A program made the translations under genes and the position numbers. The notes below the pieces were generated by a model. It was not told the DNA's origin, made no database searches, and saw only the letters and a program-made list of their open reading frames with translations. From the NCBI GenBank assembly GCA_963422735.1, contig OY730476.1, positions 2,144,001-2,208,000 of the forward strand: 64,000 nucleotides of DNA. Direction: 5' to 3'. Below, piece after piece: positions 40,913 through 45,692 of the stretch (its first letter is position 1; each line of letters opens with the position of its first letter). Source of the DNA: Candidatus Latescibacterota bacterium (lineage in GTDB: Bacteria > Latescibacterota > UBA2968 > UBA8231).

Positions 40913-41365
40913 TCACTCCTGTTCTTTGTCCCAAAAGGCTTGTAAAATGTCGATGTACTCGGCGGAAAGTCCGTGTTTAATAGCCCCCCGGATGACGGCG
41001 TTGAGATATTCCTCCGAGGGCGGATAGTGGTGTCCAGCATCGAGGCGGGAGAGATACGTCCAAACTTCGCCAAACTTAGGGATGGTTATCTCGTCCCGCC
41101 GGTATTTAGTGCCCTCGCTTTCGTAGTGGTCGAGGCGGCGAAGGTCTTCCGGCGTCACTGCATAGATGACGCCTTCGACGAATGCTTCCTCGTTGGGCCG
41201 GATACTGGCCACGCCCATGCCGCTGCGCGTGAAGGAGATCATCGGGAAACACAACTCGTAGCCTTCTAGGCGCACCACAGAGTGGAGACGGGCACCCGGG
41301 CAACGAGCCTGCATCTGGCTCCAAAGCAAATTGGACCCGTAGGCAAAGTAGAGCAATTCGGCCAT
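40913..41365 (-). CDS. Gamma-glutamylcyclotransferase family protein
   Basis: YFAYGSNL, VEGVIY, LDHYE, PSEEYL..I..GA..HGL. Confidence 0.9.
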   Translation of the reverse strand: MAELLYFAYGSNLLWSQMQARCPGARLHSVVRLEGYELCFPMISFTRSGMGVASIRPNEEAFVEGVIYAVTPEDLRRLDHYESEGTKYRRDEITIPKFGEVWTYLSRLDAGHHYPPSEEYLNAVIRGAIKHGLSAEYIDILQAFWDKEQE

Positions 41366-41677: not shown

Positions 41678-43148
41678 ATGACCAAACGCTTACTACCCAT
41701 CGGCATTCAAACCTTCCACAAAATTCGGGAGCAGAACTGCTACTATGTCGATAAGACCGCCTACATTCGGCGGCTGCTCGACGGAGGCACGCACTACTTC
41801 CTGTCGCGTCCACGGCGCTTTGGCAAGAGCCACGCTCAAGGAGGTGTTTGAGGGCAACGAGCCGCTGTTCGAGGGGCTTCACATCCACGACCGATGGAAT
41901 TGGTCGGTTCGCCATCCCGTCCTGCGGCTCAGCTTTGGCAGCGGCAACCTCAAGGAGCCCGGCTACGTGGAGACGAACCTGATGGCGCAATTGGACGCCG
42001 TCGAACGTCGGACCGGTGTGGCGTCGGACTACGCCACCGGGCCGGAGCGATTCGCTCACCTGCTGGAGGCGCTCGGTGGTGGTGCTGATCGACGAATACG
42101 ACAAGCCGATGCTCGATGCGCTAGAGGTGCCGGAGATCGCCCGCGCCAACCGCGACTTTTTGCGCGGCCTCTACGCGGTCATCAAGGACAGCGACGCGCA
42201 CGTCCGCTTCACGTTCATTACCGGGGTGAGCAAGTTTTCTAAGGTGAGGCTGTTTTCCGGCCTCAACAATCTCACCGACATCACCTTAGACCCGCGCTAC
42301 TCGGCCCTCTGCGGCTACACCGAGGCGGACTTGGATACCATGTTCGCCCCGGAACTCCCCGGCTTGGACCGGGACCAGATCCGCGACTGGTACAACGGCT
42401 ATAGTTGGCTCGGCGACGAGACGGGGTACAACCCTTTTGACCTCCTCCTGCTCTTTCGCCGTCGCCGATTCGCCGCCTATTGGTTTGAGACCGGCACCCC
42501 CACGTTCCTAGTCGAAACGCTGTTCAAGCGCCTCGTCCGTTCCCTAGCACTGGGCGAGATGGAGGGCAGCGACTAACTGCTATCGACCTTTGATGTCGAT
42601 CACATTGCAACGGAAGCACTGCTGCTCCAGACCGGCTACCTCACGATAACGGACGAGGAAGACTTTGGCGGAGAGCCCGTCTATCGCTTCGGGAGGTGCG
42701 CCAGAGCCTGAACCGCAGCTTGCTGCGCTACCTCGTGCGGCTGTATCGGCTGTTGGAGGCCAATGATTTCGCCGGGCTGGAGACGCTCTTCCACGCTTTC
42801 TTCGCCCGCATTCCCTACGAGTGGTACACCAACAACGACATCGCCGATTACGAGGGTTACTACGCGAGCGTGTTCTACTCCTATTTCGCCGGGCTGGGGC
42901 TGGACATCACAGTAGAGGATAGCAGCAGCCACGGCCGGCTGGACATGGCGGTTCTGTTCAACGGCCGCGTCTATCTGTTCGAGTTCAAGGGGGTCGAGAT
43001 GGCGTCTGCGGGTGCAGCTATGAAGCAGTTGCAGGAGCGGCGATATGCAGATAAGTACCGCGCTTTGGACCAGCCGATGTACCTGATCGCCGTGGAGTTC
43101 AGCAAGGATGAGCGCAATGTCGCGGCGTTTGACGTGGAGCGCGCCTGA
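41678..43148 (+). pseudogene. AAA-ATPase-like + PD-(D/E)XK (PDDEXK_9-type) protein, frameshifted with internal stop
   Basis: [23 protein letters not shown]; VVLIDEYDKP; TGVSKFSK; YWFETGTP; stop at 42574-42576; EGYYAS..GRLDM..FEFK. Confidence 0.92.
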
Positions 43149-43179
43149 CAGACGAGGTGGATGTGCTGGCAAAATTCGC

Positions 43180-43216
43180 GTTTGGAACTATGATCCGATT
43201 TCTAGGGGATCGGAAC
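43180..43216 (+). CRISPR. Isolated 37-nt CRISPR-like repeat (degenerate), copy 1
   Basis: gtttggaactatgatccgatttctaggggatcggaac; 28/37 identical to 43666-43702. Confidence 0.55.
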
Positions 43217-43345
43217 GCCTATGACGCCTTCTACGACAAGCGGACAGGCTGGAGCGGTTCGGGCGGCGTGTTGTGCGCCCGCTCATGTTTATCGGCTTGC
43301 TTATTTGGATTCTAATCTAACAACCTAATCCATAAGAGGTTGATT

Positions 43346-43657
43346 ATGTCTTTTGGCGAATTCTTGTTTGGTCTTGCAGCGGAGCTGACGGAGGAACAGG
43401 AGAAACGTCGGCGATACCTATCCCTACAAAGTCATATTCTAGACGGCCGTAGGAATAGGTATCACCCGGTTCTGGCCGGGCGTAAATGCCGTACACCCTC
43501 CTTGGCTAATAATAGGTCTGCCCGTTTTTTAATTCGGTCTTGCCGAAATTCTTCAGACGGGGTGGCTAACAGCCATGTTCTGGGCGATCGTAGGAATAGG
43601 TATCACCCAACTATTCTTGGCCGAGCCACATCAAGGAGGCCGTTTTGGGGCTTTTAG
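43346..43657 (+). pseudogene. Small lower-GC gene, probably a degraded membrane protein, between CRISPR-like repeats
   Basis: AGAGG SD + ATG; alternative frame gives TAVGIGITRFW..WLIIGLPVF..WLTAMFWAIVGIGITQLFL; internal duplication cgtaggaataggtatcaccc. Confidence 0.5.
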
Positions 43658-43665
43658 CCTAACCC

Positions 43666-43702
43666 ATTTAGAATGTTGGCCCGATTTCTAGGGGATTGAA
43701 AC
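43666..43702 (+). CRISPR. Isolated 37-nt CRISPR-like repeat, copy 2
   Basis: atttagaatgttggcccgatttctaggggattgaaac; canonical ATTGAAAC 3' end preceded by a ccc..ggg stem. Confidence 0.65.
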
Positions 43703-43749
43703 GTGAGTTCACTTAGTTCGGCAGCAAACCAAAACAAAGGAAAACACCC

Positions 43750-44841
43750 GTGAAAGCTTGGCGTTTTTATGCCTTCGGCGACATGCGGCTCGACGACATT
43801 GAGCTGGCGGCCTGCCCACCCGACCACGTGTTAGTCGAGCCGCTGGTAGTCCAGCCCAGCGCGACCGAAGTCCAGCTCGCCTTTGGGATTCCGACCTTGG
43901 CGTACGACCACGTCAAGAGCCGGCTGGAGACAGATGCGCCGCTCCAGCTATTCGGCCACGAATTTTGTGCCCGGATCGTAGAGGTCGGGTCAGCCGTCGT
44001 AGGCTACGCACCCGGCGACCGCGTAGCGGCCCGCGCCAAGCTGCCCTGCGGCGATTGCGCCATGTGCCACTCCGAGCGCAGCGACGACTGCCGGCGTGGC
44101 CCGATCATCGGCTTCCAACTGCCCGGCTGCTTTGCCGAGCGCGCCCTGCTCCCGGCCATCGCACTGGTCAAGGTCGATGACCGTATCTCCGACAGTGAAG
44201 CCGCCACTCTGCAGTCGCTGAGCGACAGCATCGCCGGGGTCGAGACCGCGCAGATCCGACCGGGTGATTCCGTCGCCGTCTTTGGCCAAGGCAGCATGGG
44301 CATCGAGAGTATGCAGGCCGCACGCGCCTGCGGAGCGGGCCAGCTCATCACCGTGGACGTGCGGCCCGAGGCTTGCGCGATCTCGCTCGCGCTGGGTGCC
44401 GATCACGCAATCAACGCCAGTGAAGACGATCCGGTCGAAGCGATCCGCGACCTGACCGGTGGCGAGGGCGCAGACTTGGCATTCGAATGCGCCGGCGGCA
44501 GCATCAAGCAGGGGCTAGCCGGCGACCGGGCACTCAAACAGGCCATGCATGCGGTGCGCTCCGGCGGCAAGCTGGTGGGTGTCTCCTGGTTTGGGACACC
44601 ACTAGAACTGGATGTGGACCTGCTGCGGGAGCGCAGCCTGCGCTACCTCTTCCCGGACGTCAGCTCGCAGGCCCATCTAGAATACACAGTGCGGCTGGTG
44701 GCCTCTGGGCGCATCAGCATGAAACCCACCATCCGGCACGTGTTAGAAGGAATCGATAAGGTACCGGAGGCATTTGAAATCACGGCGCACAAAGCCCAGT
44801 ACCAAGCCATCAATCCAGCGCAGGTCGTGATCGCCACCTAG
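43750..44841 (+). CDS. Zinc-dependent alcohol/sugar dehydrogenase (MDR)
   Basis: FGHEF, CGDCAMC..C structural Zn site, GDSVAVFGQG.MG. Confidence 0.92.
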   Translation: MKAWRFYAFGDMRLDDIELAACPPDHVLVEPLVVQPSATEVQLAFGIPTLAYDHVKSRLETDAPLQLFGHEFCARIVEVGSAVVGYAPGDRVAARAKLPCGDCAMCHSERSDDCRRGPIIGFQLPGCFAERALLPAIALVKVDDRISDSEAATLQSLSDSIAGVETAQIRPGDSVAVFGQGSMGIESMQAARACGAGQLITVDVRPEACAISLALGADHAINASEDDPVEAIRDLTGGEGADLAFECAGGSIKQGLAGDRALKQAMHAVRSGGKLVGVSWFGTPLELDVDLLRERSLRYLFPDVSSQAHLEYTVRLVASGRISMKPTIRHVLEGIDKVPEAFEITAHKAQYQAINPAQVVIAT

Positions 44842-45692
44842 GAAATATCGGGGTAATTCAACGGCATCCCCGTCTTGCCCAGCTCGTAGTGCGCTATGTG
44901 CCAACGCCCCAAGTTGGCGCTGAGAAAGAGCGACCGATCCGGGCCGCAGAAGGCGATATTGGTCGGGGCCGCCATGGCAGTGCCTTCGTAATCGTCGGCC
45001 AAAATATCGAGTTGGCCGTCGGCATACTGATAGATGCGATCCGGGCGATAGCAGGAGCAGTAGAGGGTGCCCTCGTCGTCAAAGGCGAGGCCATCGGGAA
45101 CGGTCTGCGGCAGGTCGAACGCGGTTTCGGCGGCACCGGCGCGGCCGTCGGCCTCGATTTTGATGCGGGCCACGCGGGGGCAGATGCTCATGGCCACATA
45201 GAGGTGTTCGCCCGTCGCATCTAGTGCCGTGCCGTTGGGGAATTCCGGCAGGGCGCGGCTCCAGACCTCGCCTTGGCCTCCCGGGGCGATCTTGCAGATC
45301 CAACCGTCGTTTTCGTGCCAGCCCCCGGAATTAGATACATAGAGGTTACCGGCCGTGTCAAAGACCGGGTAGTTGGCCGCAGTCAGCGGCACCTCGCCCG
45401 CGCGGTCGCAATACGTACTGACCGCGCCATCTGGCTCGACGCGCTTGACATTGCCGCTACAGACGTACAGGCGGTGCTGGGCATCCTGACAGATGCCGCC
45501 GACAAAACCGCCGACTTGGGCGAACTCTTCGAATGCGCGCCGGGCCAAGTCGATGCGGTAGATCTGGCCCGCTTCGCCGCCGGCATAGGCATAGCCATCA
45601 CAGCCCCAAGCAATGCACTCGGGGTGGTCGAGGCCACCGCCAAAGTCGCCGATAATAGCTGAAATCTGGGTGTGGGTATCGAGAAGAGCCAT
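44838..45692 (-). CDS. SMP-30/gluconolactonase/LRE family protein
   Basis: LDHPEC, GNLYVS, FPNGTA, VPDGLAFD..G.LY, PTNIAF.G. Confidence 0.9.
   Translation of the reverse strand: MALLDTHTQISAIIGDFGGGLDHPECIAWGCDGYAYAGGEAGQIYRIDLARRAFEEFAQVGGFVGGICQDAQHRLYVCSGNVKRVEPDGAVSTYCDRAGEVPLTAANYPVFDTAGNLYVSNSGGWHENDGWICKIAPGGQGEVWSRALPEFPNGTALDATGEHLYVAMSICPRVARIKIEADGRAGAAETAFDLPQTVPDGLAFDDEGTLYCSCYRPDRIYQYADGQLDILADDYEGTAMAAPTNIAFCGPDRSLFLSANLGRWHIAHYELGKTGMPLNYPDIS

Follow-up and report, generated by a model that had tools for sequence, protein, structure and literature searches.

A pair of 37-nt CRISPR repeats separated by 449 bp is probably what remains, as a decaying scar, of a type III-A CRISPR-Cas module that once lay between a PD-(D/E)XK gene and a Zn-dehydrogenase gene, as judged from sequence comparison within the genus. 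The window, that is the whole stretch of 64,000 nt analyzed here, corresponds to G000:C1:2144001-2208000 in a genome of 4.95 Mb that consists of one contig. Both features expected of a deletion scar were found. At this position, congeners have the module intact, collapsed to a remnant or absent with an empty site, and the cas6 stump of 19 nt to which the upstream repeat (R1) is fused identifies the fusion point as a deletion junction. Taken at face value, the finding suggests that CRISPR repeats can package a gene in a new way, but the relatives show the ordinary loss of a CRISPR-Cas locus. The locus therefore looks like a remnant of CRISPR-Cas loss, a kind of ordinary gene-loss debris, and not like a new gene cassette.

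The two direct repeats, R1 (43180-43216, plus strand) and R2 (43666-43702, plus strand), had been proposed in a first-pass annotation of the sequence, and they are present exactly as quoted there, identical at 28 of 37 positions and sharing an exact 16-nt core. The core, CCGATTTCTAGGGGAT, occurs exactly twice in the window. When up to three mismatches are allowed, four matches are found in the window against 0.52 expected, a number reached by none of 100 shuffles. The repeats lie 486 nt apart from start to start, leaving the interior of 449 bp (43217-43665), and they are the sole copies in the genome. A third core match (15/16 at G000:2241280-2241295) was rejected as chance, since its flanks are not repeat-like and a reversed-pattern control also gave one such match. 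R2 ends 47 nt before the dehydrogenase start and retains the canonical 3-bp stem and the intact 8-nt tag ATTGAAAC, the same stem and end that the annotation had pointed out. The tag of R1 is mutated to ATCGGAAC, and R1 folds differently, into a non-canonical 9-bp hairpin. In an Rfam search of 42000-45000, R2 gave sub-threshold matches only (CRISPR-DR2, 24 bits against a gathering score of 37, on the minus strand; CRISPR-DR10, 15.7 against 39), and the interior gave nothing.

The label CRISPR-like turned out to be right, as both sequences are genuine CRISPR repeats by their identity to array or solitary repeats of congeners. R2, an orphan repeat of the terminal type, is identical at 34 of 37 positions to the solitary repeat of G013 and at 32 of 37 to the array repeat of G001 and G022, and is also near the array repeat of G042. 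The orphan R1 matches two terminal repeats of the G001 array at 32 of 37 positions. These identities place R1 and R2 in the type III-A repeat family of the genus, the arrays of which adjoin cas1 in G001, G018, G021 and G022. Because R1 is of the G001 terminal type and R2 of the G013 type, with only 28 of 37 positions in common, they are different repeat variants and do not represent a fresh duplication around an integrated insert.

Counted by the 3' 22-mer of the repeat with at most two mismatches, 17 of 31 genomes of the genus (G000 included) carry the family and 14 do not. Arrays of 14-356 copies are held by 10 of the 31 genomes, and seven have only one to three copies; in six of these seven, a solitary repeat lies no more than about 250 nt downstream of a PD-(D/E)XK gene. 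The repeat-spacer unit in the arrays of congeners measures about 73-80 nt. R1 and R2 do not form a functional array of this kind, as they are separated by 449 bp instead of regular spacers of about 35-45 nt, and the only cas remnant beside them is the 19-nt cas6 stump. Terminal array repeats degenerate elsewhere in the genus, for example in G001 and G006.

The same site was compared in related species. The backbone genes around it, a GGACT-family gene, the PD-(D/E)XK/AAA-ATPase-like gene and the Zn-dehydrogenase gene, share 88-93% DNA identity with those of G001, G002, G009, G011, G013 and G022. On the right-hand side, the gene for the Zn-dependent alcohol dehydrogenase (43750-44841, plus strand; PF08240 and PF00107) has orthologues of 90-93% identity in congeners. 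In G001, the exact gap that holds R1, the interior and R2 in the window is taken up by about 17.7 kb of sequence that form a complete type III-A locus, in the order cas6 (PF10040), a CARF/sigma-54 regulator, cas10/csm1, csm2, csm3, csm4, csm5, a CARF protein, cas1, cas2 and an array of 64 repeats. The cas6 ATG of this locus lies 7 nt after the PD-(D/E)XK stop, and its array ends in a trailer of 107 nt followed by the dehydrogenase leader, which matches the sequence after R2. This leader (43703-43749, plus strand) is 96% identical to G001:320541-320595. In G022, G011 and G013, the site is empty, and the stop of the PD-(D/E)XK gene beside the dehydrogenase abuts the leader directly without a repeat. 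Depending on the species, the gap may contain a full type III-A module, solitary repeats, a GH108-like gene, one or two copies of the PD-(D/E)XK gene or duplicated 5' fragments of the dehydrogenase gene, so varied a content that the gap would appear to be prone to recombination.

Several arrangements in the gap and near related arrays were observed in their own right. Duplicated dehydrogenase 5' fragments flank inserted modules in G022 (L024 1-2046), which also has a second PD-(D/E)XK copy, and in G009 (L029 15262-15430); these duplicated flanks suggest insertion or loss of the module by recombination between them. In G002 (L030 7714-8172, minus strand), an open frame of 152 codons without a Pfam family runs from the base right after the solitary repeat. 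The terminal repeat of the G042 array is truncated and runs, in register, into native sequence that precedes an SDR gene. An element of about 80 nt (…GCAGATGGACGCAGATA…CGAATCGTTC…) recurs in both orientations beside cas6 stumps and mini-arrays (L033 of G011, L030 of G002 and L046 of G011). Its copy at 5.32 Mb of G011 (L046) lies upstream of a two-repeat mini-array with a normal spacer of 40 nt.

The left-hand neighbour of the scar belongs to the context of intact modules. A PD-(D/E)XK gene with AAA-ATPase-like and PDDEXK_9 domains lies immediately upstream of cas6 in the intact type III-A modules of G001 (L022:5317-6864) and G042 (L082:11361-12905), and it may be an accessory part of the module. 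In the window, this gene is a pseudogene (41678-43148, plus strand) with PF09820 and PF08011 on three ORF pieces, and tblastn with the intact 515-aa orthologue of G001 showed at least three frameshifts (frames 3, 1, 2, 1). Four copies or fragments of the PD-(D/E)XK gene are found in G000, and cas6 stumps follow two of them.

The stump at the junction (43161-43179, plus strand), ATGTGCTGGCAAAATTCGC, is a cas6-like 5' remnant of 19 nt. It aligns with the first ~28 nt of cas6 when a small internal deletion is allowed, as seen against the start of the intact PF10040 cas6 of G001 and against the stump of G002, and it is fused directly to the first base of R1. The same junction in G002 reads ATGCTGAACGAACTGCGCAAAATCC, with one extra T, and then continues into an R1-type repeat. 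In G011, a cas6 stump of about 47 nt is fused to a solitary R1-type repeat, while in G004 a stump of about 195 nt is fused to an R2-type repeat. Among 18 cas6 5' ends recorded in the genus (16 and two in G000), nine are full length and nine are stumps, in a census that sees only remnants retaining the 5' end.

A second scar was found in G000 at 490927-491061, in which 44 codons of cas6 stand between an intact PD-(D/E)XK paralogue and a 5'-truncated HAD-hydrolase gene and are joined to the latter. The same HAD gene directly follows an array in G018 and G006. The sequence CTAATTTCTAGGAATTGCACC at about G000:491546 was first taken as a decayed repeat, but it is native intergenic sequence between the HAD and SDR genes, found in at least 12 congeners, and it is the sequence into which the truncated terminal repeat of G042 runs.

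The junction shows that a deletion brought the initial ~25 nt of cas6 up against the first base of a late repeat of the terminal type, now R1, and took out the cas operon and almost the whole array. R2 would be the old terminal repeat abutting the dehydrogenase leader. The 449 bp between R1 and R2 would then be leftover or inserted non-coding DNA at the trailer end, either carried in with the module or inserted into the last spacer, and neither a spacer nor a working gene. The decay is visible in the frameshifts of the PD-(D/E)XK gene, in the mutated 8-nt tag of R1 and in the substitutions that both repeats carry between strains, and the scar at 490927-491061 and the shortened half of the cas6 5' ends support the same reading. 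Counting against it are the interior that matches nothing, the canonical stem and tag of R2 in a genome that still encodes a Cas6, the open frame of 105 codons with a Shine-Dalgarno-like sequence, and the structure kept in a second strain. Most likely, the locus lacks any function; the neighbouring PD-(D/E)XK gene is dying as well. Read as a scar, the locus is a clean, datable example of the loss of a type III-A module; for dating the events, the flanking genes of the nearest species genome have only about 93% DNA identity.

The second strain was met in run X8, where one contig of 665 nt covers 43097-43761 with eight differences (about 98.8% identity) and keeps the whole structure, an agreement of little weight at a divergence of 1.2%. 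Each repeat has one of these differences (at 43205 in R1, at 43670 in R2) and the interior has five; of the four that touch the 105-codon frame, three are non-synonymous. The dehydrogenase stretch has two differences in 469 nt against five in the 449 nt of the interior, which is not significant (Fisher p 0.28). These numbers are small, and they suggest no constraint on the repeats or on the open frame. Another X8 contig joins 43140 to 43732, with 30 letters on the shorter side at a likeness threshold of 85%, and most likely comes from another species with an empty site. No contig of the metatranscriptome run X11 falls on 43142-43711, and those that match the flanks do so at less than 95% and derive from other organisms, so this run is uninformative on expression of the locus.

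The interior (43217-43665) is unique DNA of 449 bp without a credible match in the searches made, and it is probably non-functional. Its GC content is 0.51 (0.48 in 43301-43665), against 0.60 in the window. It had been read as a small, degraded gene for a membrane-like protein with a Shine-Dalgarno sequence and lower GC. The lower GC and an AAGAGG resembling a Shine-Dalgarno sequence stand, but the hydrophobic frame contains two internal stops. No homologue of the interior was found, so that a gene is not demonstrated. The AAGAGG is followed by an ATG (43346) in an open frame of 105 codons (43340-43657, plus strand), the predicted product of which is rich in Arg with an internal duplication; whether the frame is a real gene is doubtful on its sequence. 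A direct repeat of 38 nt with 84% identity (family D1; 43430-43467 and 43571-43608, plus strand) has no further copies in the genome, and its inverted copy forms a hairpin. This hairpin, the inverted repeat I4 (43410-43466), has arms of 18 bp and a folding energy of -29.9 kcal/mol (z -4.4), and it was not called a terminator because no T-run follows from it. A scan for promoters and terminators gave two weak promoter-like sites and no terminator.

Homologues of the interior were sought widely. No second copy is present in its own genome, and the comparison with 30 congeners, array trailers and leaders included, gave nothing better than E 0.048, with all matches about 40 nt or shorter. Three short matches (23-37 nt, E about 0.006 per genome) came from 131 other genomes of the class, which is what chance gives over that number. 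Phages gave no match and plasmids gave one of 39 nt at E 0.4. Neither interior frame matched a Pfam family, and a word-based protein search with the read-through hydrophobic frame found nothing. With the 105-codon frame, phmmer against 1.84 billion representatives returned a single match (E 5.8e-4) to a 330-aa tandem-repeat artefact protein, judged spurious. The likeness of the interior ORF to the 152-aa ORF after the solitary repeat of G002 was rejected too (alignment score 18, shuffle mean 19). A scan of metagenome contigs with the dehydrogenase-leader pattern gave nothing, and one with an interior 20-mer gave four loci sharing only those 20-21 nt by chance. Viral-contig scans with the 23-mer beside R1 and with the interior 20-mer gave nothing.

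The junctions show one further oddity. The three independent cas6'::repeat junctions (G000/G002, G011 and G004) all fall on the first base of the repeat, within 1 nt, a pattern of three cases only that can be ascertained where a repeat is recognizable. By a rough estimate made with no formal test, on the basis of about three qualifying positions per unit of ~77 nt, all three would do so by chance about once in 10,000. Four other cas6 truncations end outside arrays (G041, G045, locus B of G001 and the 490-kb site of G000), and the stump of G046, with its unclear end, is in neither group. CRISPR repeats of the genus could be preferred breakpoints for a specific reaction through which type III-A modules are erased or moved as a whole, an explanation we regard as unlikely on the present alignments. 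The Cas1-Cas2 integrase-type chemistry attacks repeat boundaries and would be one candidate. If such a reaction exists, it could also leave native or foreign DNA bracketed by repeats, of which the 449-bp interior and the G018 HAD gene would be examples. The pattern is a lead and not a result, but the precise junctions make up a small data set for asking whether repeat boundaries are mechanistically preferred deletion end-points.

The relic could have acquired a use. In that case, the scar is real, but R2 and perhaps R1 would still be cut by the resident PF10040 Cas6, which would process the 5' leader of the dehydrogenase mRNA or free a long crRNA-like RNA with a 'spacer' of 449 nt. The proposal draws on the intact tag and 3-bp stem of R2 and on the solitary repeats that stand directly before start codons in G011 (17 nt), G002 (0 nt) and G018 (2 nt). 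It also draws on the type III-B system of G000. This system has a cmr operon, which adjoins the PF10040 Cas6 at 908118-909020, and an array of 14 repeats at 907079-908150, the repeat of which is identical to R2 at 26 of 37 positions and has the 3' half, the 3' stem and the ATTGAAAC tag in common with it. The resident Cas6, missed by PF01881 (Cas6_C) and recovered with the G001 protein and PF10040, is however just 31% identical to the cognate III-A Cas6, in the C-terminal domain only. Furthermore, both repeats have substitutions between the two strains, the tag of R1 is mutated and its fold altered, and neither the position nor the interior is conserved between species. For mini-arrays near type III loci (10-14% of them), Shmakov et al. 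found neither conserved positions nor targets (PMC10120712), and this precedent also speaks against a retained role. An exapted relic is thus quite improbable as far as the sequences indicate. A related proposal of the first-pass annotation, that Cas6 sites regulate a small mRNA, found no support, as the fusion of R1 to a cas6 stump is a deletion junction and the full locus stands at the same site in relatives.

The statement that the window has no normal array and no cas genes holds for arrays and cas1. The arrays of G000 are at 0.907 and 3.169 Mb and its only cas1 is at 0.906 Mb (905554-906444), all outside the window. A 341-aa ORF in the type III-B operon had been suspected as Cas6, but it is a Uma2 nuclease. 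The array at G000:C1:3169196-3169450 is small, with four copies of another repeat that likewise ends in GGATTGAAAC. At G000:C1:3412728-3413880, a 72-nt unit stands 16 times in tandem, each with a tRNA T-arm-like GGGATCGAACCC motif.

The interior might also consist of five or six repeat-spacer units that have mutated beyond recognition. The distance of 486 nt equals about six units of ~77 nt, and the degenerate terminal repeats of G001 and G006 show that such repeats do decay. But the best match of any 37-mer of the interior to six repeat variants is only 19 of 37 positions, and 249 of 300 shuffles score as high, whereas R1 and R2 still agree with their relatives at 28-34 of 37, so no decayed repeats were found within it. 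Its GC of 0.48 is also unlike that of spacers of the genus, and this origin is very unlikely.

A gene-sized spacer in the form of a repeat-delimited, integron-like cassette was one of the readings offered in the annotation. A mobile cassette of this type, or a gene-sized spacer integrated by Cas1-Cas2, would fit the two direct repeats around a lower-GC segment with an open frame, and a whole HAD-hydrolase gene between the last array repeat and a partial repeat in G018 may seem to offer a parallel, but this is largely refuted and hardly credible, since the genome holds two copies only and brackets no further genes with them, the two repeats are different variants and not the identical duplicates that integration would make, the interior has no homologue anywhere searched, ordinary arrays and cas operons stand at the same site in relatives, and the HAD gene is native. 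In G018 (L026, C1:5145770-5146890), the last repeat of an array of 67 copies is followed by this gene and about 300 nt, and then by a partial repeat of 28 nt, which is 2 nt upstream of the ATG of the SDR gene. In at least 12 congeners, the HAD gene natively adjoins the SDR gene, and it is not cargo, which shows that repeat-bracketed genes can arise here through rearrangement. Two of the checks proposed along with the cassette turned out negative: dispersed copies that flank whole genes are absent from the genome, and no relative was seen in which a cassette was lost to leave exactly one repeat.

Integron gene cassettes consist of gene-sized segments bracketed by direct repeats, with a family of dispersed sites and multiple cassettes. 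The locus resembles them in the direct repeats around a gene-sized segment, but its two copies in 4.95 Mb do not make a family of dispersed sites, multiple cassettes are absent, and its repeats are CRISPR repeats of two variants.

Racrs and the solitary repeat units of phages and plasmids are isolated CRISPR repeats outside arrays, as are R1 and R2. They are reported to be carried by mobile elements (PMC10651486), in contrast to this locus in a chromosomal backbone that is syntenic across the genus. The flanks are syntenic chromosomal genes in G001, G002, G009, G011, G013 and G022, and no credible match to a phage or plasmid was found.

Regulatory mini-arrays, crRNA-like RNAs and CreTA share with the locus the pair of lone repeat-like sequences, one of which is degenerate (PMC10120712). 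Systems of this kind combine a normal-length spacer, partly matching the promoter of a cas or toxin gene, with a location within or next to a cas locus and with conservation among related loci (PMC10120712). Here, the 'spacer' has 449 bp, about 1.28 Mb separates it from the nearest cas genes, and none of 30 congeners has the interior. In the 40 nt nearest to R1, the only local match is of chance level; there, 43221-43236 agrees at 15 of 16 positions with 41166-41181 in the GGACT-family gene, in the orientation needed for pairing of a type III crRNA with mRNA, but the similarity does not extend. Neither a spacer of normal length with a target nor a conserved position at a cas locus is therefore found at R1/R2.

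Orphan or degenerate CRISPR remnants after the loss of cas genes are the closest known kind, for which the orphan CRISPR2 of Enterococcus faecalis (PMC4580645) and the cas loss in Escherichia and Salmonella (PMC2886076) are examples. Compared with the available descriptions of these remnants, the locus differs in having only two repeats, in their distance of 449 bp instead of about 40, and in the 19-nt cas6 stump that marks the junction. It agrees with them, as described there, in its genuine repeats without adjacent cas genes, in the complete locus at the same site of relatives and in its degenerate terminal repeats.
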